From NCBI RefSeq assembly GCF_054482525.1, contig NZ_CM137006.1: a DNA stretch of 64,000 bases. One strand, 5' to 3'. The translations under genes were made by a program, and so were the position numbers. The notes below the pieces were generated by a model, which was not told the origin of the DNA, made no database searches, and was given only the letters and a program-made list of their open reading frames with translations. Below, in pieces: positions 4,036 through 61,261 of the stretch (within the stretch, counting starts at the first letter, position 1; each line of letters begins with the position of its first letter).

Positions 4036-4113
4036 GTAGGCCGGATAAGGCTTTTACGCCGTATCCGGCAGCCGTTGCCTGATGCGACGCTCGCGCGTCT
4101 TATCAGGCCTACA
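4036..4113. repeat. REP/BIME palindromic elements (two inverted REP units)
   Basis: gtaggccggataagg...gccgtatccggca and gcctgatgcgacgc...cttatcaggcctac palindromes in the infB-rbfA spacer. Confidence 0.8.
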
Positions 4114-13547: not shown

Positions 13548-14267
13548 ATGGGGCGTAAAGGACTACTTGCTATTGTATTGTTGAGCCTGTTTATCGCCAT
13601 GATTTTTCAATTTTTCTGGCCTGCCCCACACGATGAGCACGTTTTCCTGCTGGTTGAAAAACCTGTCGTACCGTCTTTAAAAATCATTCACGCCGGCGAC
13701 CAGTTATTTATCCGCATTCTGAAAGCGGAAGATAAGCTGGAACTGTGGGCAAGCACCAACAACAAGCCTTACGAACTCTATAAAACCTGGACTATATGCG
13801 CGTGGTCTGGTGGCTTAGGGCCAAAGCACAAACAGGGGGATGGTAAAAGCCCGGAAGGTTTTTATGCCACCAACAAAGGGTTACTTAACCCAAACAGTCG
13901 CTATCATCTGGCATTTAATATTGGTTACCCGAATGCTTACGATCGGGCAAACGGCTACACCGGTGATTTCATTATGGTTCACGGAAACTGCCTTTCGGCG
14001 GGCTGCTATGCCATGACCGATGCTGGTATTGAAGAGATTTATCAACTGGTGGCGCAGGCGCTGAATAGCGGGCAGAAGAGCGTGCCGGTGCATATCTTCC
14101 CGTTTGCGATGAACGAAGAAAATATGCGCCAGGCGCAGGTATGGCCGGAATATAATTTCTGGCGTATGTTGAAGCCCGGCTATGATTACTTTGAAAAAAA
14201 TCGCCGATTGCCAACCATCACCATTGAAAACCGGCGTTATAAAATCAGCCCAACAACTCATCCTTAG
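13548..14267 (+). CDS. YafK/DpaA-like L,D-transpeptidase-fold protein (YkuD domain) with N-terminal signal/anchor
   Basis: 239 aa; hydrophobic N-terminus; YkuD catalytic motif HGNCLSAGC; long-range similarity to E. coli YafK (…SGGLGPK…[10 protein letters not shown]…[11 protein letters not shown]…GCYAM…PGYDYFE…). Confidence 0.75.
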
Positions 14268-21714: not shown

Positions 21715-22290
21715 CTATTTAATAAACGTAAACGCCGTGGTTACCCGCTTCACGCCGCTTACCCGGCTGGCAATATCTGCCGCCGCTTTCGCTTCACGTT
21801 CAGTCACTAGCCCCATCAGGAACACTTCACCGTTTTCGGTGGTCACTTTCACGTTGGACGATTTCACCAGGTCGCTGGTTAACAGCTGCGAACGCACTTT
21901 GGTGGTGATCCACGTATCGTTAGACGCTTCGCCCAGACCAATCGGCTGGCCCTGACGAATCTCGTTATACACTTCGTTGGCACCGTCGACGCCCATCGCA
22001 ATTTGTTTAGCGCGAGCCGAAAGTTCAGCGTTTGGTGACTGCCCAACCAGCAGCACTTTGCCCTGATACGCCGTGACATTAATACGGGTTTCTTTCTTTA
22101 TCTGTTCGTCTTTCGACAATGCGCTGTTTACGCGCACTTCCAGGGTACCATCGTCTACCTGGGTGCCGACACTGCGTGGGTCAGTTGCGGCTTTGGTACC
22201 CACAGCAGCGGTACCCACTACGGCAGCGGCAACACAACCTTGCAACAGCAGCGCGGAAAGAAGGACTGCGATTGGCGATAATGCCTTCAT
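21715..22290 (-). CDS. dolP: Outer-membrane lipoprotein DolP (YraP), dual BON domains
   Basis: 191 aa, lipobox LLQGC, two BON-like repeats. Confidence 0.93.
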   Translation of the reverse strand: MKALSPIAVLLSALLLQGCVAAAVVGTAAVGTKAATDPRSVGTQVDDGTLEVRVNSALSKDEQIKKETRINVTAYQGKVLLVGQSPNAELSARAKQIAMGVDGANEVYNEIRQGQPIGLGEASNDTWITTKVRSQLLTSDLVKSSNVKVTTENGEVFLMGLVTEREAKAAADIASRVSGVKRVTTAFTFIK

Positions 22291-22299
22291 GTATTCTCC

Positions 22300-22890
22300 T
22301 TAAACATCCTGGTGAGGGAAAAGCGTGTTATCGATCAGATCGCACAGGCAATTTACCGTCAGCATATGCATCTCCTGAATGCGAGCACTACGATGCGAAG
22401 GAATGCGGATCTCCACATCCTGTGGCCCTAACAAACCTGCAAGTTCACCGCCGTCATAGCCGGTTAATGCCACAATGGTCATATCACGCGTAACGGCAGC
22501 TTCTACCGCTTTTACAATATCGCGGCTGTTGCCACGGGTGGAAATGGCTAACAATACATCTCCCGCATGACCCAGCGCCCGCACCTGTTTTGCATACACT
22601 TCATCATGTAAGCGATCGTTGGCAATCGCCGTTAAGACAACATTATCAGTATTTAGTGCAATGGCAGGTAAGCTGGGCCGCTCCGTTTCGAAACGGTTGA
22701 TCATGCTGGCAGCAAAATGCTGTGCATTGGCAGCGGAAGTTCCATTACCACAACAGAGGATTTTGTTGCCATTGAGCAGAGACTGAACCAGCGTCATGGC
22801 TGCACGGGAGATGGCATCCGGAAGCGCCTCTGCCGCCGCAATTTGAGTTTGAATGCTTTCAGTGAAGCAAGCTTTAATTCTTTCTTGCAC
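22300..22890 (-). CDS. diaA: DnaA initiator-associating protein DiaA (SIS domain)
   Basis: 196-aa [26 protein letters not shown]... Confidence 0.93.
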
Positions 22891-22909
22891 GCTAATCCTT
22901 AAACCTTAA

Positions 22910-23305
22910 TTATGAGTGGTCATTAAAGGCATCCTTAATCCACTCAACCTCATTCCCGGTGAAGGCTACCACATCGAACCGGCAATCCACAGTATCAAAA
23001 CTCCCATTATGACGCGCGAGCCACAAGCGGGCAGTCTGTAATAATTTGTGTTGTTTGCTGCGGGTCACACTGGCTGCCGCGCCGCCATAAAGCGCAGAGC
23101 GGCGGTAACGCACCTCAACAAAAACGGTGGTCCGGCCTTCACGCATTATCAGATCGATCTCGCCGCCACGCTCGTTCACGTTAGCGGCGATAAACCGCAG
23201 TCCTTTGCCTTCCAGCCAGCGACGCGCTTGTGCTTCCCACGCATCGCCGGTCTGTTTGGTGGTTAACTGGCGGGGACTACCTGACCTTGTTGGTACTGTA
23301 GCCAT
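22910..23305 (-). CDS. yraN: UPF0102 protein YraN
   Basis: 131-aa ORF; conserved position between diaA and lpoA. Confidence 0.88.
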
Positions 23306-25299
23306 GATAACTTCCTGTTAATCACGCAATCCGGGTTAGCCGTCAGACTTCCGGTATTACCGTTGATTTCAAAACCCTGAACCTGGCGCATTTGTGAGAA
23401 ATGATTTGTCAACGACCAGGCATCGACGCCCATCGCATACATGCGAGCCAGCGAATAATCGTTGTTCACCGCGCTGAGCGCCTGCTGCATTAACGGCAGA
23501 TTACCGCCTGCCAGCATCGGGATTTCGCTGTACTGCAAGCCTTCCATCTCCAGACGGAAATCCGGGCCTGCGGTGCCTTGTGCGCTGCGGGAACTGGCGT
23601 ACAGCGTTGCACCGCTCTGGCTACCGTTACGCATGGCGATCATCGGTTTGATAAAAGCGATTTCACCCGGCGTTGCCACAATGTAGACCGCATCGACACG
23701 ACCGCCATTATTGGTGAACTGGTCATCGGTTGGCGTGGTTTGCAGCGTTGGATTGTTGGTCGTCATGCCGGAGTCGGTTGTCGCTCTGGGAGTAATCGGG
23801 CTACCCGTTAAAGCAATACCAGAACCGCCGTTAACACCCGCGCGTAATTCGCTGGTGGAACCAAATTTTTGTTGCAGAACGGTGCCGCCACCCAGTTTCT
23901 GCCACTCTTGCGCAAACGCATTGGCTACGCGATCGCCCAATGAACTACGTGGGATCAGCACCAGCGGCGCTTGTTTACCCTGGTCACGAATATGACGCGC
24001 AGCATCGCGCGCTTCGTCTTCTGGTGAAAGCGCGAAGTAACAAATATTGACGCGGTTTTCGATATTCTCCGGCTGGTTCAGTGCCAGCACGTTCAGCGGG
24101 GTGTTGCTCTTCAGCAACTCTTCAACGTTATTTTTCAGCAACGGGCCGACCACAATACTCGCGCCATCCTGTTGAACCTGGTTGAGGATCTGGCTAAGTG
24201 GTTGTGATGATGTATCGTAGATTTTCAGCTCTGCGGATGGATTCGCAGGTGCGCTTACCGCTGCGGTGGTTGCCGCCGGGGCGTTTACAGGCACCGGCTG
24301 GGCCGCAGGTTGTTCACCGGTCAGATCGCTAACCGAGGCTTGTGCCGGGCTGGCAACGCCATCCACGGTTTGCGGCTGAGGTTGTTCTGCTACGTCTGCG
24401 GCAGGTGCGGCAGCTACCTGAGTCGCCACTGGCTGAGTGCCGATATTTTTCGCCGCTTCAAAGCCTTGCTGAATAGTGCGACCAAATACCGCTGCCTGGC
24501 CATTCAGTGGCAAAAGCAGGGCGATTTTGTTGGTCGATGCGGGTTTAAACGCTTTTACGTTAACCAACTGCGTTGGCAGCATTTTCGCGCCCGGGTTGTT
24601 CGGATAACGTTTCTGCCAGTCGGCGATCCCGGCTTTCATCATGTCGGGATCGTTACGGTTATCAAACCAGATGCGCTGCAGATCCAGCCAGCCTTGCAGA
24701 ATATTTTCGTCGGCATTGATCACCAGCGTATTCGCCTGTTCCTGAGTCATGGAGGAGAGCGCCTGCCAGGTTGCGTCAATATTCTGCTGCTTTTCTTTCG
24801 CGCCGAGCAGCGGTTCCTGAGCAATTAACGCGCGCAGTAAATCAATGGAAGGACGCCCCTGGCTGGCATCGATTTTTACCTGCCAGTAACGCGCTTGCTG
24901 GTTTTGTTCTAAATCTGCAGGTGTGATTTTCGCCAGCAAGTTTTGCGCGCCAGCAAAATCTTTCTGCGCCAGTTTAATCTCTGCCGCCAGCAGTGTTTTC
25001 TCGCGACGCTGAGAATCGTTCAGTTCTTGCGGTAGTTGGTTAAACAACTCCACCGCCTGTCCGGTTTTACCTTCTTTCACCAGTGCACGAATGGCGAGTA
25101 ATTGCCAGTTGATCCTGGTATCATCAGAGCTTTGCTGCATCTGTTGCAGGTAAAAGGCAGAATCAGCCTGCGCCGTGCCCTGCATATAAGCAGTGGACTG
25201 ATCGGGAGTATGGGTGCCACAACCGGCGAAAATCAGGGCTGCCAGAACAACAGGCAGACAACGCGCGGCTTTCAAACGAGAAAATGTTGAGGGTACCAT
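23263..25299 (-). CDS. lpoA: Penicillin-binding protein activator LpoA (lipoprotein)
   Basis: [28 protein letters not shown]…; 678 aa from internal ATG; lipobox. Confidence 0.92.
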
Positions 25300-25363
25300 A
25301 ATGTATCCAGTGATATTTTTTTTACGCAATGCTCAATATTAAATCGGCAAAACGGACGACACA

Positions 25364-26227
25364 ATGAAACAACACCAATCGGCGGATAATTCTCAGGGCC
25401 AGCTTTACATTGTACCGACGCCAATCGGCAATCTGGCGGATATCACCCAGCGTGCGTTGGAGGTATTACAGGCCGTTGATCTGATTGCCGCCGAGGATAC
25501 GCGTCACACCGGTTTATTGCTGCAACATTTTGGGATTAATGCTCGGTTGTTTGCGCTGCACGACCATAACGAACAACAAAAAGCCGAAACGCTGCTGGCG
25601 AAGCTGCAAGAGGGGCAAAACATTGCGCTGGTTTCCGATGCCGGAACGCCGCTAATTAACGATCCTGGCTACCATCTGGTGCGTACCTGCCGTGAAGCGG
25701 GGATTCGCGTGGTGCCGCTACCCGGGCCGTGTGCTGCTATCACTGCGTTAAGCGCCGCGGGTTTACCATCCGATCGTTTTTGTTATGAAGGCTTTTTACC
25801 TGCCAAATCAAAAGGCCGCCGTGATGCGCTAAAAGCCATTGAAGCGGAGCCGCGCACGCTGATTTTTTATGAATCTACCCACCGTCTGTTAGATAGCCTG
25901 GAAGATATCGTTGCGGTATTAGGCGAATCCCGCTACGTCGTTCTGGCGCGTGAGCTGACCAAAACCTGGGAAACCATTCACGGCGCGCCCGTTGGCGAGC
26001 TGCTGGCGTGGGTCAAAGAAGATGAAAACCGTCGCAAAGGCGAAATGGTACTGATTGTCGAAGGCCATAAAGCACAGGAAGAAGACTTACCCGCCGATGC
26101 CCTGCGCACGCTGGCGCTGCTACAGGCAGAACTGCCACTGAAAAAAGCGGCGGCGCTGGCAGCAGAAATTCACGGCGTGAAGAAAAATGCGCTGTATAAG
26201 TATGCACTGGAGCAGCAGGGAGAGTGA
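25364..26227 (+). CDS. rsmI: 16S rRNA (cytidine1402-2'-O)-methyltransferase RsmI
   Basis: 287-aa ORF, tetrapyrrole-methylase fold motifs ([15 protein letters not shown]). Confidence 0.93.
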
Positions 26228-26276
26228 TTACAGGCGTCGCAGCAGGAATAGCGTTGCAACGCCTGTAGCAGGCGAG

Positions 26277-27044
26277 TTAACGACGACACATCTCATCAAT
26301 CATGCATGTGAAATAGTTATGCAGCCATAAAAATGAAGCCGGGATAGCGGTAGAGACTTTAGCCGTGAGAAAACGTTCTGTCGCATCCTGCTTTCCTTCG
26401 CCAGTCACCAGTAACAAAACTTCGTGGGCATTGAGAATATCCTTCAGGCCTAAGGTGATCCCACGAGTCACGGGACGGCCCGCGGTTTTTAACATCTCAT
26501 GTTGCTGTGTTCTGGCATCAAGTTGACTGATATGGCAGGCCGGTTGCAGGCTTTCTCCCGGTTCGTTCAGCCCAAGATGACCGTTTTTCCCCAACCCGAG
26601 AACGCATAAATCCAGACCGCCTTTGCGCGCAATCAGGTGCGTTACCCGTTCGCACTCTGTCTCATTTATCTCTTCGGAGCGAAAGCTGATGAGCTGGTCT
26701 TCACGCAGCCCCAGCGGCTGCACGATATGCTGTTGCAGGAAAGTTTCGCAGGTACCAGGCATAGTTAATGGCAGATCCACCCATTCGTCGAGCTTCACGA
26801 AGGTGAGCTGGCTGACATCAACCTGCTGCTGGTGGATTTTTTCTACCAGATAATGATACGTCAGTAATGGCGTGGCTCCGGTCGCCAGGCAAATCACTGC
26901 ATCCGGTTTGCTACGGATCACTGCCAATAAATATTCGCTGGCACGTTCACTTAACGCCATATAGTTTTCAACTTGCTGAAGGGTTTGCACAGGATGAAAT
27001 TCCTTAAGTAAAGAGGCACCACCAGACGCAGTGCCTCGTTCCAT
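26277..27044 (-). CDS. agaI: Putative galactosamine-6-phosphate deaminase/isomerase AgaI
   Basis: 255-aa ORF, NagB/GlcN6P-deaminase-like; last gene of aga cluster. Confidence 0.88.
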   Translation of the reverse strand: MERGTASGGASLLKEFHPVQTLQQVENYMALSERASEYLLAVIRSKPDAVICLATGATPLLTYHYLVEKIHQQQVDVSQLTFVKLDEWVDLPLTMPGTCETFLQQHIVQPLGLREDQLISFRSEEINETECERVTHLIARKGGLDLCVLGLGKNGHLGLNEPGESLQPACHISQLDARTQQHEMLKTAGRPVTRGITLGLKDILNAHEVLLLVTGEGKQDATERFLTAKVSTAIPASFLWLHNYFTCMIDEMCRR

Positions 27045-27836
27045 TTACAAAATGCCGAATGCGGAACAAACAATAGAGAGCACAAAAGTCACGCCGATTA
27101 ACAGCACCGGATGCGCTTTTTTCACCCGCAGGAAGTAATACATCAGCAGGGTGTAGGCCATCGGTAAAATATTCGGGAAGACTTTATCGAAGAAATCCTG
27201 CTGCAGCGCGACGCTGTGGGTACTGTCGATGGCAAACGATGTCACCACGTTAATATGCACATACGAAGCGATCAGCCCGCCGATTACTGTGATCCCGAGG
27301 ATGGTTGCCGAACGGGCAATCATCTGCGAGTTCTCTCGCACTTTATCGATCGCCTTCACGCCGACTGAATAACCGACGTGGGTCCAGCCGACGCGCAGGA
27401 AAAAGATAAGCAGGTAAACGGCGAAAAATAGAATCGGCCCCAGCAGGTTTCCCTGGCTGGCAAATGATGAGCAAATCCCCGCCATAATCGGCAACAAAGT
27501 GAACCAGAAAATCGCATCGCCAATCCCGGCGATTGGGCCAAACAGTGCCACTTTGAGGCCTTTAATGGTGTCGCGGTTTTCTCCTTTTTCTTCCATCGAA
27601 ATTAATAACCCCATCAGGAATCCGACCAGATTCGGGTGGGTATTAATAAATTCGAGGTTATCTTTCATCGCCGCGCTTAGGCCCGGTTTGTCGTCCTTAT
27701 AAATCTTTTTCAGGATCGGCAACATCGCCCAGGTAAAACCGCCCGCCTGCATCCTTTCGTAGTTAAAGCTTGCTTGTAGCAGTGACGAACGAAAGCCCAG
27801 ACGGGTGATATCTTTTTTACTGATTTCAGATCCCAT
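27045..27836 (-). CDS. agaD: PTS galactosamine-specific EIID
   Basis: MGSEISKKDITRLGFRSSLLQASFNYERMQ… 263 aa from internal ATG; mannose-family IID. Confidence 0.9.
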   Translation of the reverse strand: MGSEISKKDITRLGFRSSLLQASFNYERMQAGGFTWAMLPILKKIYKDDKPGLSAAMKDNLEFINTHPNLVGFLMGLLISMEEKGENRDTIKGLKVALFGPIAGIGDAIFWFTLLPIMAGICSSFASQGNLLGPILFFAVYLLIFFLRVGWTHVGYSVGVKAIDKVRENSQMIARSATILGITVIGGLIASYVHINVVTSFAIDSTHSVALQQDFFDKVFPNILPMAYTLLMYYFLRVKKAHPVLLIGVTFVLSIVCSAFGIL

Positions 27837-28629
27837 TGCTGTAGTCCTCTTCTTCATTTTTACTGGCAACGGGCTGCGGTTGCGCTTGCTGCCGGGATTT
27901 CGCATTGAAAAACTCATACACCGCAAAGCCTGCACCCAGTACGGCAACCGGCAACAGGTTGCTGACCTGGATGTAGCAAACAAACAGGAAGCCAGCGATC
28001 AGGTAAGGGATATATTGCGCTTTGAACATCACGCGCAGCAGCAAGCCAAAACCAACGGCAGGCAGAATACCACCAGCCACTTCAAAGCCGTGGGTCAGCC
28101 AGGCGGGCATCGCTTTCACCAGCGCCTGCATCGCCCCTTGTGCCAGGTAAGTACAGAGGAACGCAATCACCGCATACGCTGAAGCGACGATGAGCATCGT
28201 TGTCCAGTTAAGTCGGGAAAACGCTGCCGTATCCGCCTCTTTCGCGCATTTATCGGCTTTGGTCATAAATAATGAGAAAGCGGAATAGAAGAACAGAATG
28301 ACGTACTGCATTAACAAACTAAACGGCAGGCCAAGACCAATTGCCGTTTTGGCATCAACGCCCGTAGACCATGCAATGACGGTGGTCATCAGACCCGCCA
28401 TAATCGGGTTGGGCGGCTGAACACCACCTGCAGGGGTTAATCCGGCGAAAGCCAACTCTGTCAGACCACCGGTAATTAAGCCAGTCTGAATATCACCGAG
28501 AATAGCGCCAGTTAGGGTACAAACGATTATCGGGCGGAATAAAAATAAGGCTTCCAGCCAAAAATCAATCCCCAGAAAGAAAACTAACGCCGCCAGGGAT
28601 AATCCCTGGAGTAGGGTTATTTCATGCAT
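27826..28629 (-). CDS. agaC: PTS galactosamine-specific EIIC
   Basis: 267-aa membrane ORF, mannose-family IIC; 11-bp overlap with agaD. Confidence 0.9.
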   Translation of the reverse strand: MHEITLLQGLSLAALVFFLGIDFWLEALFLFRPIIVCTLTGAILGDIQTGLITGGLTELAFAGLTPAGGVQPPNPIMAGLMTTVIAWSTGVDAKTAIGLGLPFSLLMQYVILFFYSAFSLFMTKADKCAKEADTAAFSRLNWTTMLIVASAYAVIAFLCTYLAQGAMQALVKAMPAWLTHGFEVAGGILPAVGFGLLLRVMFKAQYIPYLIAGFLFVCYIQVSNLLPVAVLGAGFAVYEFFNAKSRQQAQPQPVASKNEEEDYSNGI

Positions 28630-28667
28630 TTTTATTACCTCAAACCAATATTAAGGCGATTTTAGAT

Positions 28668-29144
28668 TTAGTCAGGGATTTGTTCTTTTTGATCGCCAGG
28701 GACGTCCTGAATGAAAACATTCACGCCACGTTGTTTAATAAAACGTAAGTCCGTGAGATCCTGGTCATCGACATAAACTTTACTGCTGATTTGCTTTTTC
28801 CCTTCCGAGAAATGCATATTGCCGACGTTGACATCTTTCAGGTCAATGCCACCTTCTACCAATTTACGTACCGTTTGTGGCGTACGGCAAATCAGGAAGA
28901 TCTTTTGATGCGGTGCAGCTTTGCCGATGACATTAATGGTTTTTTCGATAGTAAAGAAACGAATGCCAAAGCCGTAGGTTTCCGCGGTAATACCCATTAA
29001 TTTCTGTTGAATATCATCGTTAGCGACAACATCATCCACGACTACCAGCAGATTTGCACCGATGGTAGATGTCCAGGTCACACCAACCTGGCCATGAACC
29101 AGACGGTTATCAATACGGGTTAAGAGAATATTTGGACTGCTCAT
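28668..29144 (-). CDS. agaB: PTS galactosamine-specific EIIB
   Basis: 158 aa, mannose-family IIB (LTRIDNRLVHGQV). Confidence 0.9.
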   Translation of the reverse strand: MSSPNILLTRIDNRLVHGQVGVTWTSTIGANLLVVVDDVVANDDIQQKLMGITAETYGFGIRFFTIEKTINVIGKAAPHQKIFLICRTPQTVRKLVEGGIDLKDVNVGNMHFSEGKKQISSKVYVDDQDLTDLRFIKQRGVNVFIQDVPGDQKEQIPD

Positions 29145-29310
29145 TGTGTAATCCTCACCATAAAGTTGAATAATATAATCTTTTTAAATATATTATTGTT
29201 GCGGTATTGTACTGATGTATTTATTAAGGTTTAGTTATCTCCTTTACCATTAAGGCACTCCCCGATATTAATCGGGAAGTACATTGGGATAAATCATAAA
29301 AAACTAATGA

Positions 29311-30183
<873 letters not shown>

Positions 30184-31338
30184 TTATGCCTGCCACGGAT
30201 GAATGATTACGCCTTGCACCACGCGGTTAACGGTGCCACTGGCTGATGGGGTATCCGGCGTATTGCCCATGTGCAGCGACTGCATCAGTGCAAACGTCTG
30301 GGCGTACATCAGGAAGCAAAATGCCTGCTCAACGTCGATAAAGTGACGGGACGGCGGCAGGATGATATGTGGACCGGCGGTAATAACGTCGTTGCTTTCC
30401 GCGGCGATAGCGATTACGCGCATCGCCTGGTTATCGCGGCGAAGTTCAGCCAGCAGATCAAGATCATACTGACGGGTGTAAGGGTGGCTGGAGACAAATA
30501 CCACCACCAGCGTTTCGTTATCGACCAGCGATTTCGGGCCATGACGGAATCCGGTCGGGGAATCATAAAAGGCCGCCAGTTTACCCGCCGTCAGTTCCAG
30601 TACTTTCAGCGCCGACTCGCGTGCTGCGCCCTGTAAGCCACCGCTGCCGAGATAAACGATCCGTTTCCACGGTGCGTAACCAAACACACCTTCGCTGAAA
30701 TCGCCCAGTGAGGTCAGGATCGCCTGGCAACGATCCGCCACGTCGCGGAAGCTCTGGCTATTGATCGTCTCAGGTGCGAAAACCGCGAGGCAGCTGGCCA
30801 TCATGGTGGTAATGCTGCTGGTCATCGCAAAGCCGCGATCGTGCGTTTCTGCGGGCATCAGCAGGGCAAACGCGTTGTCGCTGTTGATCGCGTTTTGGTA
30901 AAGAGCGCCCGCTTCGTTGCAGGTGATCGGCAGGTGATAGCATTCTGGTACAAATTGATTTGCCAGTTCCACGGCGGCGACGCTTTCCGGGCTGTTGCCG
31001 GATCGACCGAAGGAGATCAACAGTAGCGGATGAGCTGGATTCAGGTAGTCCATCGGATTAGTGACCAGATCGGTGGTCGGTACGGCGCTGAAGTTTTTAC
31101 CGGTATGGCTGGCGAGCCACGGCGCGATGATGTCACCGATAAATGCCGAGGTTCCGGCTCCGGTCAGGATTACCCGCAGATTCTCTTTGAGCAGTAACGG
31201 TTCAAGGAAGTTATTGAGCGCGGAACGTAGCGCGTCGATGTTGGTGAGTGAACGGATCCATGCGCGAGGCTGATGGCGGATCTCTTCTTCAGTCCATGTA
31301 CCGGTTGCGGCAGCAGCAGGGGTGTAATTTTCTGGCAT
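30184..31338 (-). CDS. agaS: Putative sugar isomerase/deaminase AgaS (SIS domains)
   Basis: 384-aa ORF with tandem SIS domains. Confidence 0.92.
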   Translation of the reverse strand: MPENYTPAAAATGTWTEEEIRHQPRAWIRSLTNIDALRSALNNFLEPLLLKENLRVILTGAGTSAFIGDIIAPWLASHTGKNFSAVPTTDLVTNPMDYLNPAHPLLLISFGRSGNSPESVAAVELANQFVPECYHLPITCNEAGALYQNAINSDNAFALLMPAETHDRGFAMTSSITTMMASCLAVFAPETINSQSFRDVADRCQAILTSLGDFSEGVFGYAPWKRIVYLGSGGLQGAARESALKVLELTAGKLAAFYDSPTGFRHGPKSLVDNETLVVVFVSSHPYTRQYDLDLLAELRRDNQAMRVIAIAAESNDVITAGPHIILPPSRHFIDVEQAFCFLMYAQTFALMQSLHMGNTPDTPSASGTVNRVVQGVIIHPWQA

Positions 31339-31391
31339 AACTCAATCCTTAGTCTGATGAACTTGACGTCGGGCGTTGTCGCTTTCGCTTA

Positions 31392-31520
31392 CCTTTCGTT
31401 TCATTTCACTTGGTGATGTCTTTCGTTGATTAAAATCTATAGAAAAGAAACTGAAAGTTCAATGGAGAAAAAAGAAATAAAACGAAATTTGTGATCATTG
31501 AAAGAAAAGACAAGGGAAGA
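31392..31520. promoter_or_regulatory. agaS promoter with AgaR-operator-like repeats
   Basis: cctttcgtttcatttcacttgg fits the AgaR operator pattern; further ctttcgtt/aaacgaaa copies nearby. Confidence 0.6.
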
Positions 31521-31557
31521 TTAAAGGATTGCGTAATGACGTCGCTATGTTCACCGA

Positions 31558-31615
31558 TTGCCGGATGCGGCGTACCGTAGGTCGGATCAGACGCGTTAGC
31601 GTCGCATCCGACACC
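31558..31615. repeat. REP palindromic element pair
   Basis: gccggatgcggcgtaccgtaggtcggatcagacgcgttagcgtcgcatccgacac. Confidence 0.75.
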
Positions 31616-31688
31616 GCTGCACAGATCAAAAAGAAAGAAAAAGAAAGGCCTTACGGGGGAAGTGAAGGCCCAATAATGGAGCAAACCA

Positions 31689-32822
31689 TCAAAACGAAGC
31701 TAATTGACCCTGAATCCAGATTTGTTGCACATGCAGCCCGCTATCCAGCGCAACGACGCTGGCGCGTTTGCCCGGTTTAAGCGATCCCAGAACACCATCA
31801 ACACCCAGCATTCGCGCCGGATGCAGCGACGCCATATGGATGGCTTCCGCAGGCGTTACGCCCGTTAACTCGACCATGTTGCGCACTGCTGCATCGACAG
31901 ATAGCGTACTGCCCGCCAGCCCACCGGACGCGGTACGGACAACGCCACCGTGCATCTGCACTTCTTCGCCACATAACGTATAGCGACCATCCGGCATCCC
32001 AGCTGCCTGCATCGCGTCGGTGATCAGTACGATTCTCTCTTTCGCACAGCAACAACACAGCGACATCGCCGCCGGATGCACATGATGACCATCGGCTATC
32101 AGTTCCAGCCAGGCGCGCTTGTCCGTTAATCCCGCGCCAACCATTCCCGGTTCGCGGTGATGTAAACCTGTCATCCCGTTATAGCAATGCACCAGGCCGT
32201 CGGCACCAGCATCAAATGCGGCGCGGGTTTGTTGCCAGGTCGCCGCGCTATGCCCCAGCATCACCCTTACGTTTTGCTGTTTAAGATGGCGGATGGCCTG
32301 CAATGCCCCTTCTTTTTCCGGTGCCAGCGCTACCACGCGCAAGGTGTGCTGAGAAACGGCAATCAATTGATCCAGCTCGGCAATTTCAAGCTCGCGAAAC
32401 AACTCCGGCGGATGCGCGCCTTTATTCTGCGGCGTGAAGTACGGTCCTTCGAGATAACTCCCCAGCACTTGCGCACCAGGTCCGCCGCGTTGGCAACGTT
32501 GAGCAATACGTTTCAGCGCCGCATGAATGGTATTAAGCGGCGCGGTTACGGTGGTCGGTAACCAACTGCCGACACCTTCGCGTGCCTTGTGCATTGCCAG
32601 CTTGTCGAGTACATCCGGCGCGTCATCCATTACATCAACGCCCGCACCACCATGTACATGGGTGTCGATGTAAGCGGGGCAGAGCAGTTCCGCATCGCGT
32701 TCAGTCACGCCCACTGGAATCGGTTCGATTGCTGCGATTACACCGTCAGCAATACGCAACTGATGGTCATCGAGCCATCCCTCTTCAGTCAGCAGCCTTC
32801 TGGCGCGCAGAACGTGTGTCAT
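31689..32822 (-). CDS. agaA: N-acetylgalactosamine-6-phosphate deacetylase AgaA (full length)
   Basis: MTHVLRARRLLTEEGWL…; about 377 aa; NagA-like metal-binding motifs; intact here. Confidence 0.9.
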   Translation of the reverse strand: MTHVLRARRLLTEEGWLDDHQLRIADGVIAAIEPIPVGVTERDAELLCPAYIDTHVHGGAGVDVMDDAPDVLDKLAMHKAREGVGSWLPTTVTAPLNTIHAALKRIAQRCQRGGPGAQVLGSYLEGPYFTPQNKGAHPPELFRELEIAELDQLIAVSQHTLRVVALAPEKEGALQAIRHLKQQNVRVMLGHSAATWQQTRAAFDAGADGLVHCYNGMTGLHHREPGMVGAGLTDKRAWLELIADGHHVHPAAMSLCCCCAKERIVLITDAMQAAGMPDGRYTLCGEEVQMHGGVVRTASGGLAGSTLSVDAAVRNMVELTGVTPAEAIHMASLHPARMLGVDGVLGSLKPGKRASVVALDSGLHVQQIWIQGQLASF

Positions 32823-33253
32823 ATTCCTTCCTCGACCGGACATTCTTCATGGCAGCGGCCTAACTCGTCTACCAGACTGGTCAGCCCACGGTGTCCACAC
32901 TCCAGCGCCTGCACACGGAACTCTTCACCGCTTAACCCTTCGCGCTCCAGCACCATCTCCAGTAGCAGTTGCAAATTGGTGCCGGTGATCACTTCACAGC
33001 CCGGTTTTTGCATCGCCAGCGTTGAAGCTACGCGAAACGGCGTGCCGCCCAGCAAATCTGTCAGAAAAACAATGCCGTCTTCACAATCCAGTTGGGCGAT
33101 GGCCTCTTCAAGCTGCGATGTAAGCAGCGCGGTGCTTGAGGTTTCGGGAAAATCGATGGCAATAAACTGCGATTGATCGCCGAGGATTTGCTTCATTGCT
33201 TTTTCCATGCCACTGGCAAACCCGCCATGCCCTGTCAAAATAATACTTAACAT
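32819..33253 (-). CDS. agaF: PTS N-acetylgalactosamine-specific EIIA
   Basis: 144 aa, mannose-family IIA (MLSIILTGHGGFASG). Confidence 0.88.
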   Translation of the reverse strand: MLSIILTGHGGFASGMEKAMKQILGDQSQFIAIDFPETSSTALLTSQLEEAIAQLDCEDGIVFLTDLLGGTPFRVASTLAMQKPGCEVITGTNLQLLLEMVLEREGLSGEEFRVQALECGHRGLTSLVDELGRCHEECPVEEGI

Positions 33254-33270
33254 CTAATACCTCATTGTAT

Positions 33271-34155
33271 TTAAAGGAAATGGCAGAATTTACCGACGAT
33301 ACCGAGAACCACGGTAACTGCAATCAGGCGCAGCGGACTCCAGCCGCGGCGTACCAGCCAGAACATGGTCAGGGTGTAGACCAGCGGTAAGAAGGCAGGC
33401 ATCAGTTTGTCGATAACATCAGCCTGTAACTTAACCACTGCGTCGCCCGCTGTGATTTCCAGCGTGGTGCTTAAACGAACATAGGTTGCCACCAGCGCGC
33501 CGATTACCGTCATCCCAACGATAGACGCAGCATGGCCGACTTTTTTGGTATTCGCTTTAATGAGTGGAATCGCCGCCACGCCCATGCGGTAAGCATAATG
33601 CGCCAGACCAAAACGCAGCCCCAGGTGTACCACGTTGAACAGCACAATAAAGACGACTGCGCCAAGAATAGAGCCTTGTAGCGCGAGGCTTGCGCCTATC
33701 CCGCCACAAATCGGCAGTAGCGTCAGCCAGAACATCGCATCGCCAATCCCGCCAAGTGGCGCACCGACGGCAATTTTGGTGCTCTGAATACTGTTAACGT
33801 CCTGCTTAGAACGCTCCATAGCAAGGATAATGCCGATAACAAACGTCACCAGAAACGGATGGGTATTGAAGAAACCCATATGCCCCTTCATGGCGCGCGC
33901 CAGGTCGCGTTTATTAGTGTGGATCTTTTTCAGAGCAGGCAGCAGACCGTACAACCAGCCGGAAGCCTGCATACGTTCGTAGTTAAAAGACGCTTGTAAC
34001 AGCATGGAACGCCAGGCGACGCGGTTGATATCTTTTTTCGTCAGCTCCGCGCCAATGCTCTGATCTTCATACACGTTTTCATTGACGCCAGTCAGCAATG
34101 TTTCTTCGTTTTCACTGACGTTCGGCAGGGTGGTTTGATTAGATGCCATCTTCAA
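33271..34155 (-). CDS. agaE: PTS N-acetylgalactosamine-specific EIID
   Basis: 294-aa membrane ORF paralogous to agaD. Confidence 0.88.
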   Translation of the reverse strand: MKMASNQTTLPNVSENEETLLTGVNENVYEDQSIGAELTKKDINRVAWRSMLLQASFNYERMQASGWLYGLLPALKKIHTNKRDLARAMKGHMGFFNTHPFLVTFVIGIILAMERSKQDVNSIQSTKIAVGAPLGGIGDAMFWLTLLPICGGIGASLALQGSILGAVVFIVLFNVVHLGLRFGLAHYAYRMGVAAIPLIKANTKKVGHAASIVGMTVIGALVATYVRLSTTLEITAGDAVVKLQADVIDKLMPAFLPLVYTLTMFWLVRRGWSPLRLIAVTVVLGIVGKFCHFL

Positions 34156-34918
34156 ATTCCTCTTTCTGTGCCGCAGGTTGAGTCGGTTCAGGAGATTTAC
34201 GCAGCAGGTCGATCAGCGCCATCGCCAGCGCGGCGGCAGCAATAGCCAGCACCGGTAACTTGAGCCAGGCTGCGGCAACAAAGCCCAGGATGAAGTAGGG
34301 GATGTAGACGTTTTTCATCATGATTTTCAGCAGTACGGCAAAACCGATCGCTGGCATGATGCCGCCCGCGACGCCGAGGCCGTCGATTAATCGTTGCGGC
34401 AGGACATCAATGATGGTTTTGGCATGTTCTGCGCCGAAGTAGATAGGCAGGAAAGCGCAGAGAAAATAGAAAGTGCCGAGTGCCAGCAGTGCCAGATAGT
34501 TCACGCGTTCAATGCCGCGAGTATCGGCGTTCTCTGCCATCCGGTCACAGCGGGACATTACGCCAGACATCACCGAGAACAGGAAGGTAATCCCCATCTG
34601 TACTGCGACAGCGAAAGGTACGGCGACACCGACTGCGACATCGGGTTTCACGCCAGTAGTAATGGCAAACGCCGTGCCGACGATAGTACCGATAATCACG
34701 TTAGGCGGCTGTGCGCCCGCCAGCGGGGCCAGCCCCATCCACACCAGTTCCAGCGTACCGCCGGTTAAAATACCGGTATGCAGATCGCCAAGTACCAGCC
34801 CGACTAACGGGCCGAGGACCACCGGGCGGTGCATATGGGTTAGGCCGTTAAACATATCCAGGCCAGCGATAAAGGCGATAATGCCCAACGCGAATGCCTG
34901 CAACAGACTGATTTCCAT
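34139..34918 (-). CDS. agaW: PTS N-acetylgalactosamine-specific EIIC (full length)
   Basis: 259-aa membrane ORF paralogous to agaC. Confidence 0.88.
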   Translation of the reverse strand: MEISLLQAFALGIIAFIAGLDMFNGLTHMHRPVVLGPLVGLVLGDLHTGILTGGTLELVWMGLAPLAGAQPPNVIIGTIVGTAFAITTGVKPDVAVGVAVPFAVAVQMGITFLFSVMSGVMSRCDRMAENADTRGIERVNYLALLALGTFYFLCAFLPIYFGAEHAKTIIDVLPQRLIDGLGVAGGIMPAIGFAVLLKIMMKNVYIPYFILGFVAAAWLKLPVLAIAAAALAMALIDLLRKSPEPTQPAAQKEEFEDGI

Positions 34919-34928
34919 GATGAATCCC

Positions 34929-35402
34929 TCAAAGTAATTTAAAGAGGTCCACTGCAGGCTCTGTCGGGACGCCCTGAACGAAGCATTCCACCCCAGCGGC
35001 TTTCAGGTCGTTAAATGCTGCAATATCGCCCGCATCTACAGAAACCGTTTTGGCGATTTGTTGCTTGCCATTGGCGTAGTGCATATTGCCAACGTTAATG
35101 CGATTCACCGGAACGCCACCTTTCACCAGCGTCAGGAAATCGGCAGGTGTTTTACAAACCAGCAGGATTTTCTGTCGATCGGCGGCGCGATGAATGTTGT
35201 CGATGACTTTTTGCAGCGTCCAGAAACGTACGGCGATCCCTTCTGCCAGTACCATTTCCATCAGGTTTTGTTGTACCGGATCTTCGGCAACCTCATCGTT
35301 GGCTACCAGCACCAGATTTGCCCCCGCAAATCCGACCCACTGAACGCCGACCTGACCGTGAATCAAGCGTTCATCAATCCGGCTTAAAACAATATTTGGC
35401 AT
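34929..35402 (-). CDS. agaV: PTS N-acetylgalactosamine-specific EIIB
   Basis: MPNIVLSRIDERLIHGQVG… 157 aa from internal ATG. Confidence 0.9.
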   Translation of the reverse strand: MPNIVLSRIDERLIHGQVGVQWVGFAGANLVLVANDEVAEDPVQQNLMEMVLAEGIAVRFWTLQKVIDNIHRAADRQKILLVCKTPADFLTLVKGGVPVNRINVGNMHYANGKQQIAKTVSVDAGDIAAFNDLKAAGVECFVQGVPTEPAVDLFKLL

Positions 35403-35424
35403 AGCGTGTTCCTCTTTGTTTTGC

Positions 35425-36705
35425 TTATTGGCCTTCACAGGCTGTGTGGTACTGCGCCAGGATGTCCTGAATATGGTTGATAATGAGTTCCCGTGGCGTT
35501 GGCTGCAGCTCGCCGGAGCGAACTTTCACGTATTGCAGCGGCAAATACTGGCTGATGAGCGGTAGCGGAATTGGTGAATCCGCCAGATTACGAACCAGAT
35601 GAGCGAAAGCGTCATCAATCTGGCTGTCCGGCCAGTAATAGCGCACGCGATCCGAGTAGCTATAACCACGTGCCAGACGACGCGCGTTGCCGTCACCGTG
35701 GTAGTGGCTTTGCCAGTATTCCGGGCGGTCGAGCATCACGTTTTCCAGTACCTGACGCAGACCGGAACAGGCTTTCGCTGGCACCAGTTCTTCTTCAATC
35801 GCCGCCAGAGAGAACAGAGCTTCACGCAGGGCGAAGGTCAGCGCCGGGCCAACTTTCAGAATGGCAAAGTGGTCAATCACCAGCTGGCGCAGCGATTGCG
35901 GCGTTTGATAATCGGTAGAGTGCGCTTCGAAAATCAGCGTTTCGTAGTTTTCGACCATCTGGCTTAAGGCGCTCGCTTTGGCGGGCTGATAATCAATAAC
36001 GTTGGTGTGATCGAATTCGACGCCGGGTTGTACCACCAGAGCAATGATGCGTGGCCAGATGGCACTCAGACCTTGCTTTTCAAAGGCGTGACGATGGGCT
36101 TCCAGCGTGGCGCGGGCGGCATCCGGCGTGGTGACCGCCAGCTCGCTTAAGGTTTCATGCGCGCCGCCAGGTACCGGCACTTCGGTACCAATGACATACT
36201 CCAAATCGGCTTCGCCAAAGTGTTCACGACAGGTTTCTTCCGCCACTTTCGCCAGACGTGCGGCGCGTTCAGCCACGATGTCATCAGTTAAGGGAACCGG
36301 ATCATCCTGACAGGACATGCTGCAATCAAGGTGAATTTTTTTGAATCCTGCCGCCACGTAGCTTTTAATCAAATCATCGGCATTGGCCATTGCCTGAGCG
36401 GCAGGCAGGTTTTGCCAGCGGTTTGGACCCAGATGGTCGCCACCCAGAATCAACGCATCCTGTGGGAAATTCAATGAGTCGGCGAGCTGACAAACAAAGC
36501 CGCGAAAATCGGCGGGCGTCATTCCGGTATAGCCGCCGAACTGGTCTACCTGATTGGAGGTTGCTTCAATCAGTAACGGCGTTTGGTTTGCACTGGCGTA
36601 GCGGATTGCAGCCTCCAGCACCAGCGGATGTGCGGAACAAACGGCATAAATTCCATTTGTTTTGCCCGCTTTGTGCTGTCTCACCATTTCTGTCAGATGT
36701 TTCAC
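35425..36705 (-). CDS. kbaZ: Tagatose-bisphosphate aldolase non-catalytic subunit KbaZ
   Basis: 426-aa ORF, GatZ/KbaZ family. Confidence 0.92.
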
Positions 36706-36953: not shown

Positions 36954-37763
36954 ATGAGTAATACCGACGCTTCAGGTGAGAAGCGAATGACAGGCACCAG
37001 CGAGCGACGAGAACAGATCATTCAGCGTCTGCGACAGCAAGGGAGTGTGCAGGTTAACGATCTGTCGGCATTGTATGGCGTATCTACTGTGACGATCCGC
37101 AACGATCTGGCGTTTCTGGAAAAGCAGGGGATCGCTGTGCGTGCCTATGGCGGCGCGTTGATCTGCGATAGCACGACGCCGTCAGTCGAGCCATCAGTGG
37201 AAGATAAAAGCGCGCTGAATACCGCAATGAAACGCAGCGTTGCGAAAGCTGCCGTTGAGTTGATTCAGCCAGGTCATCGGGTGATCCTCGATTCCGGGAC
37301 CACCACTTTTGAGATTGCTCGTCTGATGCGCAAGCACACTGACGTAATTGCGATGACCAACGGTATGAACGTAGCTAATGCGTTGCTGGAAGCGGAAGGC
37401 GTTGAGCTGCTGATGACCGGCGGGCATTTGCGCCGTCAGTCGCAATCTTTTTACGGCGATCAGGCTGAACAATCGCTGCAAAATTACCACTTCGATATGC
37501 TGTTTCTTGGCGTAGATGCGATCGATCTGGAGCGCGGCGTCAGCACGCATAATGAAGATGAAGCCCGTTTAAACCGCCGGATGTGCGAAGTTGCGGAACG
37601 GATCATCGTGGTCACCGATTCCAGTAAGTTCAATCGTTCCAGTTTACATAAGATCATTGATACTCAACGTATCGACATGATCATTGTTGATGAAGGCATT
37701 CCTGCGGATAGTCTGGAAGGACTGCGAAAGGCTGGGGTTGAAGTGATTCTGGTCGGGGAGTGA
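36954..37763 (+). CDS. agaR: DeoR-family repressor AgaR
   Basis: 269 aa, N-terminal HTH ([23 protein letters not shown]) and DeoR C-terminal domain. Confidence 0.93.
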
Positions 37764-37817
37764 GAAAGGGTGCCCGCTGGTCAACACGAATGCGTTCGGC
37801 GGGCATTGTGAACACCA

Positions 37818-38282
37818 TCAATGGGTTTCTTCTGTCTCTCGGGTGAGGGTTTCCCAGTCGGCAGGAGGATGTCCTCTTTTTAACATTTTGCTGAATACGG
37901 TATAGGCATCTGTTTTTTTACCGTAGGTGCGCAGAGTGTTTTCATCGTTCATCCATCCCAGAATGATGACTTTCTCTTTTTCACTATAACGAAAGAAGAG
38001 ACGATAACGACCAGCACCAAATTTTACCCGTGACCAGTCTTTATTTTTCCCAGAGCCTAACGACTTGCCATGACGGAATGCCGGTGATGATGGATTGACC
38101 GTGATATGCTCCTCAATCACTTTATGGACTACCGCCAATAACTTTGTGGCGGCTTTTCTCTGATAATTTTCAGGATCTTTTCCCTTTAATGTCTCGACTT
38201 CGGCAACTAAAGCGTCGTAGGTTTCCTGAAAACAGGGATGAGCATATAGCGCCCAACCATTAACCCTTTGTGGAAAATCCAT
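37818..38282 (-). CDS. yhaV: Toxin YhaV (ribosome-dependent mRNA interferase)
   Basis: 154-aa ORF; start overlaps prlF stop. Confidence 0.9.
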   Translation of the reverse strand: MDFPQRVNGWALYAHPCFQETYDALVAEVETLKGKDPENYQRKAATKLLAVVHKVIEEHITVNPSSPAFRHGKSLGSGKNKDWSRVKFGAGRYRLFFRYSEKEKVIILGWMNDENTLRTYGKKTDAYTVFSKMLKRGHPPADWETLTRETEETH

Positions 38283-38617
38283 TATTCGTCGTCGCCAATC
38301 TCATCATCAATGTTGACGTCCATGCCAGCGACAAGTTTCTTTCCTTGTTGAATGTTGAATGGACGAGTTTTTTGCGGGTTGTTCTGGATATCTGCATCCA
38401 GAAAACGCAAAAATGCATTCATAGTATGATCCTCCTGTTCATCTCCCAGTCGGCACATAAATACTTGCCCACCAGGCAGAATTTCGTAATGAATGCTGTC
38501 CTGGCCTGGCTTCAGTTTTAAGGCCTCACGCACTGGCGCGGGGATAGTTGTTTGTCCGCGTATCGTGACCTTTGATTCAGTGGTCAGTACAGCGTGAGAG
38601 CGAGCATTAGCGGGCAT
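38282..38617 (-). CDS. prlF: Antitoxin PrlF (SohA), AbrB/SpoVT-type
   Basis: 111-aa ORF MPANARSHAVLTTESKVTIRGQTTIPAPVREAL…, acidic C-terminus. Confidence 0.9.
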   Translation of the reverse strand: MPANARSHAVLTTESKVTIRGQTTIPAPVREALKLKPGQDSIHYEILPGGQVFMCRLGDEQEDHTMNAFLRFLDADIQNNPQKTRPFNIQQGKKLVAGMDVNIDDEIGDDE

Positions 38618-38765
38618 GATTCACTGTCCTTTTACAGCCTGTTTTCTGCTCAAATTATAAGCTTGAACTAAGGTAATGCAAATGCATTATTAATGGACGT
38701 GGGGGCTTTAAACAATAAAAACATGGCACTAAGGCCATGTTTTGCGAGGGACGTTCCAAAAGAAA

Positions 38766-40337
38766 TCAGGTCACCGGTGCCGGGTTAAACACCGCCAGCT
38801 GGTTATGCAGTCCCCATTGATCTGAGAAGGTTTTCTTCTTCCCGCTGGCGACGTCGAGAATAAAGTGGAACAACTTCCAGCCCACCTCTTCAATAGTTTC
38901 TTCGCCGGTAGCGATGGTGCCCGCATTAATATCCATTAAATCAAACCAGCGGTTCGCCAGCTCGGTGCGGGTCGCCATTTTAATGACGGGTACCGCCATC
39001 AGGCCGTATGGCGTACCACGACCGGTCGTAAACACTTGCACGGTGATACCCGAAGCCACCTGTTGCGTGCCACAGACAAAATCGCTGGCTGGCGTCGCGG
39101 CGTAAATTAATCCGCGTTTAGTCGGGCGTTGACCGGGCGACAGCACTTCAACAATTGCACTTTTACCCGATTTAGCAATGGAGCCGAGCGCTTTCTCCAC
39201 CACGTTTGCCAGACCGCCTTTCTTGTTGCCCGGCGAAGGGTTGGCGCTGCGGTCGGTTTTTCCCATATTGAGATAGTTATCGTACCACTCCATCTCCTCC
39301 AGCAGCCGTTTGCCGACCTCTTCGTTCACTGCGCGTGGTGTCAGCAGATGGATCGCGTCACGCACTTCCGTGACTTCTGAAAACATCACCGTTGCGCCGC
39401 AGCGCACCAGTAGATCAGACGCATAGCCAACCGCCGGGTTTGCCGTTACGCCAGAAAACGCATCGCTACCGCCGCACTGCATGCCGACAACCAGTTCTGA
39501 AGCCGGACAGGTTTCTCGCTGCCGTTGATTCAGTTTGTGCAAATGGCGTTCGGCGACCTGCAAAATATCCTAGACCATGGACTGAAAACCGACATGCTTT
39601 TCATCCTGCAAACTGACAATGCTGGCGCTTTCTACTGGAATAGCTTGCACATCATCCGTTCCAGTCAGCAGGCGCTCAGGCTGCAACTTTTCACAACCCA
39701 GACCAATCACCATTACTTCGCCGCCAAAGTTAGGGTTCAGCGAAATATTGTGGATGGTACGAATAGGCACAACTGCCGCCGGTGCGTTAATCGCCACGCC
39801 ACAACCGTACAAATGATTCAGCCCCACCACGCCATCGACGTTCGGGTATTTCGGTAGCAGATCGCGTTCAATGATTTTTACTACATAGTCCACCACGCCT
39901 GCCACACAGTGGACGCTGGTGGTGATGCCGAGCAGGTTTTTGGTGCCCACGCTGCCATCGGCATTGCGATAGCCCTCAAAGGTGTAACCTTCAAGCGGCG
40001 GTAAGGGTTCCGGGACTTTGGTTGCAAGTGGCAGCGTGTGTAACGGCGGCGCTTCCGGTAGTACAACCATTGATTCGTCGATCCAGCTTCCGCGTGGGAT
40101 TGCGCGCACGGCGTAACCAATCACTTCGCCATAACGAATAATTTCACCATTAGCCGGAATGTCCAGCAATGCGACTTTATGCCCCTGGGGAATATGTTCA
40201 ATTAATTCCAGCCCATCCGGAAAACGCGTTCCTGCTTTCAGGCCATTATCATTAACAATAATTGCCACATTATCTGTGTCGTGAACTTTTATATAAAACG
40301 CAGTTGGCGTTTCTTGTCTGATTTCGATGTTGGCCAT
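38766..40337 (-). pseudogene. garD: Galactarate dehydratase GarD interrupted by an in-frame amber codon
   Basis: Two collinear ORFs in the same frame; minus-strand reading …[16 protein letters not shown]… with TAG at 39570..39572; no frameshift. Confidence 0.8.
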
Positions 40338-59880: not shown

Positions 59881-60635
<755 letters not shown>

Positions 60636-60739
60636 ATCAGCATACTTGTCCTTAGCCTTCTGCAGTGACAGCTGGTAGTACAGCGTGCTTCTGGCCAGCC
60701 CTGCAGCCTTTAACAGGTCAGACTGGCAGTGTCCGCACC

Positions 60740-61261
60740 TCAGGCTCCGGATGACTTTCGTTTTTTCTCCAGCTCCTGGCGCTTTTTTTCCAGGAGATGC
60801 TCCTGCATGGCTTTCAGATATGCATTTTCTGCGCGAAGATAACGCAGCTCATTCTTCATCTCTTCCGGCGTCATGTTTGCCTCGTTTTCATGGGTATCAT
60901 CAGAACGGGTCATGCTTTTCTCCTTCCTGCGCCTGATAAAGGCCTCATTACCAGATTTGCGGTAGCCTTTTATCCAGTTTTTAACCGTGTTGTGGCTGGG
61001 AATGTTAAACCGGGCAGCTACCCGGGGTAGAGACTCAGAATGCCCGAGAGCATAAAGAACCACGCAAAGTTTATCTTCAGGAGAATAGCTACGCTTGTGT
61101 CTGCAATCCAGTGCCCGAGGACCGTGAAGAAGAAAAAGATTAATCCAGTGTGAGAGGCTGGTGTGAGAAAGTTGAAAGAGTTTTGCCGTAGAAATGATGC
61201 CTGCATGACCAGCCAGGTAGTGATTTACAGCGGCAAGTTTTACTTCAAATGAATGTTTCAT
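60740..61261 (-). CDS. insJ: IS3-family transposase OrfA (HTH), IS150 InsJ-like
   Basis: MKHSFEVKLAAVNHYLAGHAGIISTAKLFQLSHTSLSHWINLF… 173 aa. Confidence 0.88.
   Translation of the reverse strand: MKHSFEVKLAAVNHYLAGHAGIISTAKLFQLSHTSLSHWINLFLLHGPRALDCRHKRSYSPEDKLCVVLYALGHSESLPRVAARFNIPSHNTVKNWIKGYRKSGNEAFIRRRKEKSMTRSDDTHENEANMTPEEMKNELRYLRAENAYLKAMQEHLLEKKRQELEKKRKSSGA

Follow-up and report, generated by a model that had tools for sequence, protein, structure and literature searches.

In Escherichia coli K-12, the toxin YhaV is reported in the literature to arrest growth and the antitoxin PrlF to rescue it. In one review (PMC7781912), PrlF is described as neutralizing YhaV, and the complex of the two proteins (PrlF2-YhaV4) as binding a promoter palindrome 5′ of prlF and repressing its own promoter. 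That review and a second one (PMC5408214) state that PrlF has an AbrB fold. The second review also describes highly conserved arginines in YhaV and notes that the toxin loses activity when two of them are replaced. Published work is divided on the need of YhaV for the ribosome. A further review classes the toxin as an A-site mRNA cleaver, and the table of a paper that mapped its cleavage sites enters the requirement as 'Yes (44), No (43)'.

Here we describe the prlF-yhaV pair carried by a 64,000-base stretch of DNA (hereafter, the window). The window is the reverse complement of positions 3,472,212–3,536,211 (approximately) of E. coli PCN033 (CP006632.1), from which it differs by five single-nucleotide polymorphisms (SNPs), none of them in the toxin-antitoxin (TA) genes. 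Both genes are on the minus strand, a detail left unstated in the original prediction, and follow the order antitoxin first, toxin second. The antitoxin gene prlF (sohA), which codes for a DNA-binding autorepressor, is a 111-aa open reading frame (ORF) with an ATG start at 38282–38617. The toxin gene yhaV, coding for an mRNA endoribonuclease of the RelE superfamily, is a 154-aa ORF, also with an ATG start, at 37818–38282. The list of ORFs therefore gives exact coordinates to the predicted succession of a 111-aa antitoxin and a 154-aa toxin at 37818–38617. The predicted one-nucleotide overlap was read directly in the sequence as TAATG (38284–38280, minus strand), where the TAA stop of prlF and the ATG start of yhaV have base 38282 in common. 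The pair is also next to agaR, as had been noted: this 269-aa ORF (36954–37763, plus strand) converges on yhaV, and 54 nt separate the two stop codons.

The alignment to K-12 that had been suggested as a check leaves little doubt about the identity of the module. PrlF (111/111 residues) and YhaV (154/154 residues) are identical over their full lengths to K-12 MG1655 SohA (b3129) and YhaV (b3130), the proteins for which growth arrest and rescue have been reported, and the genes occupy the same chromosomal site. PrlF matches the Pfam family PrlF_antitoxin (PF15937) with 142.2 bits (cut-off, 32) and the NCBIfam equivalog NF007429 with 170 bits (cut-off, 125). YhaV matches the Pfam family Toxin_YhaV (PF11663) with 181.9 bits (cut-off, 35) across residues 12–150; a search of NCBIfam with the toxin returned no model. 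Because the family models far exceed their cut-offs, prlF and yhaV are not a chance pair of ORFs. We are nearly certain that they are the known E. coli type II TA operon, intact and in its standard form. Since the pair is intact and both proteins are identical to those of K-12, this copy of an already known module is ordinary, and the locus itself, a textbook chromosomal TA pair, matters very little. Within the tests applied, it is also the sole TA locus in the window, as predicted. In PCN033, whose corresponding stretch is 99.99% identical, prlF and yhaV are the sole TA genes named by RefSeq, and an Rfam scan of the window at gathering thresholds matched nothing beyond naRNA4 and the expected RNase P RNA, SraG and S15 leader. 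The match to naRNA4 (nucleoid-associated ncRNA 4; 77 bits) is in the infB-rbfA spacer, at 4039–4109 of the plus strand.

The intergenic sequences carry candidate signals for the independent expression of the operon. An intrinsic terminator of garD, consisting of a 10-bp stem and a T run (38718–38743, minus strand), was recovered by the terminator scan, the search for inverted repeats and folding. Situated upstream of the prlF promoter, it shields the operon from transcription that reads through garD. The candidate sigma-70 promoter (38654–38682, minus strand) has a -35 hexamer TTTGCA (38682–38677), a 17-nt spacer and a -10 hexamer TATAAT (38659–38654). It scored 10/12 in a consensus scan and is identical in K-12, consistent with a putative role in transcribing prlF. 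The search for inverted repeats also identified a perfect palindrome, TAATGCA-tt-TGCATTA (7 + 7; 38674–38689), which is likewise identical in K-12. Its position over the -35 hexamer makes it the likely operator of the PrlF-YhaV complex. A Shine-Dalgarno sequence, AAGGA (38627–38631, minus strand), can be read 9 nt 5′ of the prlF ATG. At the other end of the operon, inverted-repeat and folding analyses identified a hairpin where the two convergent genes end, between the yhaV and agaR stop codons (37771–37805; stem TGCCCGC/GCGGGCA), with folding energies of -17.6 kcal/mol on the minus strand and -21.4 kcal/mol on the plus strand (z-scores of -1.15 and -2.0, respectively). The hairpin is without a strong T tract and was not called by the terminator scan; it is probably a terminator common to both genes. 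Hits within coding sequence, another promoter-like site (38310–38281) and two terminator-like sites, were treated as chance occurrences (3 versus 1.4–1.6 expected).

Together with the published biochemistry, these elements are consistent with the following mechanism. The sigma-70 promoter just 3′ of the garD terminator would produce a single bicistronic prlF-yhaV mRNA. PrlF would be made first and, because yhaV has no clear ribosome-binding site, translation of the toxin is likely coupled to that of the antitoxin through the TAATG overlap. As described in the papers, PrlF would then bind and neutralize YhaV, and PrlF2-YhaV4 would autorepress the promoter, presumably from the palindrome at the -35 hexamer. 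Were PrlF lost or degraded, free YhaV, with its predicted RelE fold, would cut mRNA on translating ribosomes and growth would stop. Gene structure, identity to K-12, family membership, the fold and conserved residues of YhaV and the promoter and palindrome sequences were computed in this study, and the stoichiometry, DNA binding, RNase activity and role in Lon proteolysis are taken from the papers.

A search of 1.84 billion representative proteins gave 980 relatives of YhaV with E-values no higher than 0.001. When 66 full-length relatives (34–56% identity) were aligned, seven columns were invariant (P64, R85, R94, F96, W110, N112, and R118), all of which are present in the window protein, and K87 is conserved in at least 90% of the sequences. 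R85, R94, and R118 form with K87 a conserved basic active-site constellation that could map, in part tentatively, onto K52, K54, R61, and R81 of RelE. An AlphaFold2 model built from the same alignment (pLDDT, 96.4; pTM, 0.91) has beta strands, two long helices, a three-stranded antiparallel sheet and C-terminal helices, in the order of a RelE-type fold. When the model was compared to the Protein Data Bank (PDB) with Foldseek, the top 44 places were taken almost without exception by members of the RelE/ParE superfamily (RelE, HigB, YoeB, ParE, PfiT or related toxins), with TM-scores normalized by target length that were mostly 0.4–0.76. The best matches were PfiT (9w3a), E. coli RelE (4fxh, 4fxe, and the ribosome-bound 4v7k), HigB2, mycobacterial RelE, YoeB, and ParE. 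The E. coli RelE structures that were matched include free, RelB-bound and ribosome-bound forms. The designation of YhaV as an RNase toxin in the original prediction is borne out at this level. The predicted fold supports membership of YhaV in the RelE superfamily, in agreement with the literature.

Sequence comparisons reflect this relationship only faintly. An alignment of the YhaV family to RelE with hhalign was weak (E = 0.06 over 18 columns) and placed R94 on RelE R61; the targets in these comparisons were single RelE, AbrB, and MazE sequences, compared to the family alignments. The ParE_toxin family (PF05016) weakly matched 8 of the 66 YhaV relatives and a HigB-like model matched one of them. 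The window YhaV itself gave no match to RelE/ParE family models, and a PDB profile search with the protein returned no RelE match. These sequence-profile searches do not connect the proteins, and the link from YhaV to RelE structures comes from the fold comparison alone. Neither PrlF nor YhaV had a solved structure that sequence or profile searches of the PDB copy used could recover. Matches of the pair to ThreeFoil and Zuotin were compositional and do not identify true relatives. Furthermore, entry 2KHE, labeled as YhaV in a figure of a review (PMC7781912), is Thermus thermophilus RelE according to the PDB listing.

The original prediction described PrlF as an AbrB-fold antitoxin. PrlF residues 15–39 (SKVTIRGQTTIPAPVREALKLKPG) match the MazE_antitoxin family of SpoVT/AbrB type (PF04014) with 19.5 bits, under the cut-off of 24.7, and the AbrB domain model TIGR01439 with 27.1 bits, under the cut-off of 28.3. 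A weak PF04014 match is also seen in 12 of 14 PrlF relatives (best E-value, 8e-5). AbrB-family regulators are the three best, albeit weak, matches in a PDB profile search (E = 0.4–0.55), and hhalign weakly aligns PrlF 16–37 to AbrB 9–30. An additional hhalign match to MazE, in the acidic C-terminus of PrlF, is probably compositional and was set aside. The AlphaFold2 model of PrlF, which was built from a shallow alignment of 14 sequences, is poor (pLDDT, 49.1; pTM, 0.24), too poor to add structural support. The description is thus weakly supported: the sub-threshold matches agree with each other and with the fold stated in PMC7781912 and PMC5408214. An AbrB-type fold for PrlF, as stated in the literature, is not contradicted by our analysis.

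The prlF gene also contains a known hot spot for slippage, the site of the prlF1 mutation. A script located two copies of the heptamer TTCAACA (38346–38359) plus 2 nt in codons 87–91 (38346–38361, minus strand), which is the wild-type, in-frame state. In a large evolution experiment, a +7 bp TTCAACA duplication was present in every prlF-mutant line; it made the cells resistant to carbenicillin, aztreonam, and D-valine and, as a collateral effect, sensitive to peroxide (PMC7686311). The same duplication was fixed elsewhere as a compensatory mutation raising Lon activity (PMC12107188). The heptamer is thus a recurrent site of adaptive mutation, which evolution experiments tie to proteome stress and resistance to beta-lactams, and this gives it a modest value. 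Simulating other copy numbers yields three outcomes: a truncated product of 105 aa, a longer product whose translation passes the start of yhaV, or FNIQHST units added in frame. E. coli and Shigella sonnei records include PrlF proteins of 130, 137, 144, and 151 aa, equivalent to 7, 10, 13, and 16 heptamer copies, and copy numbers reach approximately 30 in Shigella sonnei protein records, the maximum being seen in one record. Most complete E. coli genomes with the tract (5,134 of 5,155) have two copies, 11 have three and about nine have 4–19.

Our searches found no open-access paper on natural variation in the copy number of this heptamer and nothing relevant on prlF as a VNTR/MLVA marker or on prlF in Shigella sonnei; the variation appears to be little described. 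Several frameshifted PrlF variants of Shigella sonnei are named 'deoxyribonuclease HsdR' in public records, in what looks like a propagated mis-annotation. A metagenome protein of 187 aa is an in-frame PrlF-YhaV fusion. The tract could conceivably operate in wild populations as a natural contingency switch, with slippage rewriting the C-terminus of PrlF and reversibly retuning toxin neutralization, Lon activity and antibiotic susceptibility, although we consider this doubtful. If true, the window would carry the two-copy ground state.

A comparison with the junction of the TA-less strain CU532-9 delimited a cassette of 1,006 bp (37760–38765) containing the promoter, prlF, yhaV and both hairpins. 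E. coli genomes carry or lack the cassette as a whole. Among 5,426 complete genomes of the species, 5,155 matched a 120-nt prlF segment, at sites annotated as prlF/yhaV. A query spanning the wider region matched about 5,360 complete genomes, 5,120 of them over its entire length, and about 200–240 (~4%) are TA-less. In the TA-less genomes, the gap between agaR and garD holds an unrelated sequence of 66 nt that forms a hairpin of its own, and AgaR has 274 aa and ends in VGDHASSL versus 269 aa and an end in VGE. The cassette has a GC content of 44–47%, compared to 51–57% in the flanks, where no repeats, mobile-element genes or target-site duplications were found. An initial figure of 634 genomes with the TA-less junction was an overcount; approximately 400 of them hold a second agaR (274 aa) beside a decayed garD-like gene. 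This second copy shares 90% identity with the TA-less junction and is part of an island that also has malX and a gene for an enterotoxin (for example, L007:5296–7352 of E. coli EC_J_9). The presence of the TA-less agaR and garD remnant on the islands of ~400 genomes suggests that the TA-less arrangement is old. The clean presence or absence of the cassette provides a natural comparison for the contribution of a chromosomal TA pair.

Additional features of the window were noted in passing. The garD gene for galactarate dehydratase (38766–40337, minus strand) has a TAG stop at codon 256 (39570–39572), which is GAG in both PCN033 and K-12, and is split into ORFs of 255 and 265 aa. The 401-bp stretch around this stop has no perfect match in any of the 5,426 complete E. 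coli genomes. Either garD is a genuine pseudogene specific to this strain, or the stop is an error of sequencing. A gene for an L,D-transpeptidase with a YkuD domain (13548–14267, plus strand) is uninterrupted in the window (ORF of 239 aa) but a pseudogene with an internal stop in the RefSeq annotation of PCN033; SNPs at 13983 and 14020 replace the stop with Gly146 and Val with Asp158. It adjoins a gene for a 176-aa hypothetical protein (12859–13389, minus strand) that has no match in Pfam. In K-12, the interval from yhbW to mtr presumably holds no pair of genes. The remaining SNPs relative to PCN033 are at 29692 and 31371, one within kbaY and the other in the intergenic region upstream of agaS. 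The aga cluster (about 22,000–36,700) contains the complete N-acetylgalactosamine/galactosamine set (agaW, agaE, agaF, and agaA/nagA), in which agaW and agaA are pseudogenes in K-12. The annotation of this stretch in PCN033 lacks the yraHIJK fimbrial genes, which we take to lie between agaI and rsmI in K-12. It also places the transposase of IS1397, an IS3-family element, between yhaL and cyuA (59913–61261, minus strand), with expression by programmed frameshift.

Natural variation in prlF raises the question of whether the window pair is a decayed copy that only looks intact, with dead catalytic residues in YhaV or an antitoxin frameshifted at the heptamer. Frameshifted and expanded prlF alleles exist in nature, with products of 130–151 aa or 3–19 copies in approximately 20 complete genomes, but the window tract has two copies and is in frame, and both proteins are 100% identical to their functional K-12 counterparts. 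Inactivating substitutions in the catalytic residues of YhaV, which would have spoken against the original prediction, were looked for; the search found zero amino-acid changes and all family-invariant residues in place. At the sequence level, decay is absent and the proteins match the experimentally studied K-12 copy, so this reading is already refuted there and its probability is close to nil. More credible, though still unlikely, is a role of the intact operon in PrlF-dependent modulation of Lon proteolysis and of envelope and proteotoxic stress (as in sohA/prlF1), with the heptamer as the mutational switch, rather than in growth arrest by the toxin. This role draws on the recurrence of the identical +7 bp duplication in independent evolution experiments, with effects on antibiotic susceptibility and proteome homeostasis (PMC7686311, PMC12107188), on the activation of Lon that a review reports for prlF1 and PrlF overproduction (PMC5408214), and on the varying copy number of the tract among natural isolates. 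However, the two-copy state of 5,134 of the 5,155 complete genomes indicates that switching is rare in nature, and every one of the three reading frames is represented among the expanded alleles, evidence against selection for a single state. Modulation of Lon would also be an added layer, compatible with the TA mechanism.

Within the TA mechanism, the mode of action of YhaV could differ from the one we propose: the toxin might be mainly a ribosome-independent RNase that attacks free mRNA and rRNA rather than an A-site, translation-dependent nuclease. [quoted passage not shown] Later work, according to PMC7781912, showed binding of YhaV to 50S and 70S particles and frame-dependent cleavage. 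Furthermore, transcriptome-wide mapping in vivo recovered ribosome-dependent signatures, with a preference for G, sub-codon bias and a 5′-end preference like that of RelE, and the predicted fold of YhaV matches ribosome-bound RelE (4v7k) with a TM-score of 0.74 normalized by target length. We therefore favor the ribosome-dependent mode and regard a mainly ribosome-independent one as rather improbable. The discrete nature of the 1,006-bp cassette, its absence from ~4% of complete genomes and its GC content below that of the flanks could also be explained if it persisted for reasons apart from host stress physiology, either as an insertion that is selfish and addictive or as a module for abortive infection against phages. 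Its borders, however, are without mobile-element genes, repeats or target-site duplications, and we know of no defence phenotype for prlF-yhaV. Selfish maintenance or phage defence would accordingly be a very unlikely reason for keeping what is, by sequence, a standard prlF-yhaV operon.

The operon was also compared with described systems. Among solved structures, the YhaV model is matched best by the toxin of the PfiAT complex (PDB 9w3a; E = 2e-4, probability of 1.00). With 15–16% identity and an rmsd above 5 Å over ~125 columns, it represents a separate family. The RelBE system of E. coli shares the toxin fold (RelE 4fxh, 4fxe, and 4v7j/4v7k; Foldseek probability of 1.00 and TM-scores up to 0.76 by RelE length) and has the antitoxin-first operon of prlF-yhaV. 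In a weak alignment (E = 0.06), the YhaV motif RYRLFF falls opposite GYRLVY in RelE. However, the two toxins share only ~14% identity, and YhaV is longer (154 aa versus 95 aa in RelE), with a longer loop (residues 61–83) and an extra C-terminal helix (residues 143–153) in the model. The antitoxins also differ, since RelB is a ribbon-helix-helix protein and PrlF, according to the literature, is AbrB/MazE-like. Consistent with such a likeness to the swapped-hairpin domains of MazE, AbrB, and SpoVT, four independent comparisons, all of them below curated cut-offs, place PrlF residues 15–39 on the AbrB/MazE motif. Unlike MazE, PrlF pairs with a RelE-type rather than a MazF-type toxin. The closest system is the SohA-YhaV pair of K-12 MG1655, in which the TAATG overlap, the promoter, the palindrome and the gene order garD-prlF-yhaV-agaR are all as in the window. 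Only two nucleotides differ across the 1,002-bp interval between garD and agaR: a synonymous GAG/GAA difference at yhaV codon 149 (37836) and a non-coding C/T difference at 37770, beside the downstream hairpin.
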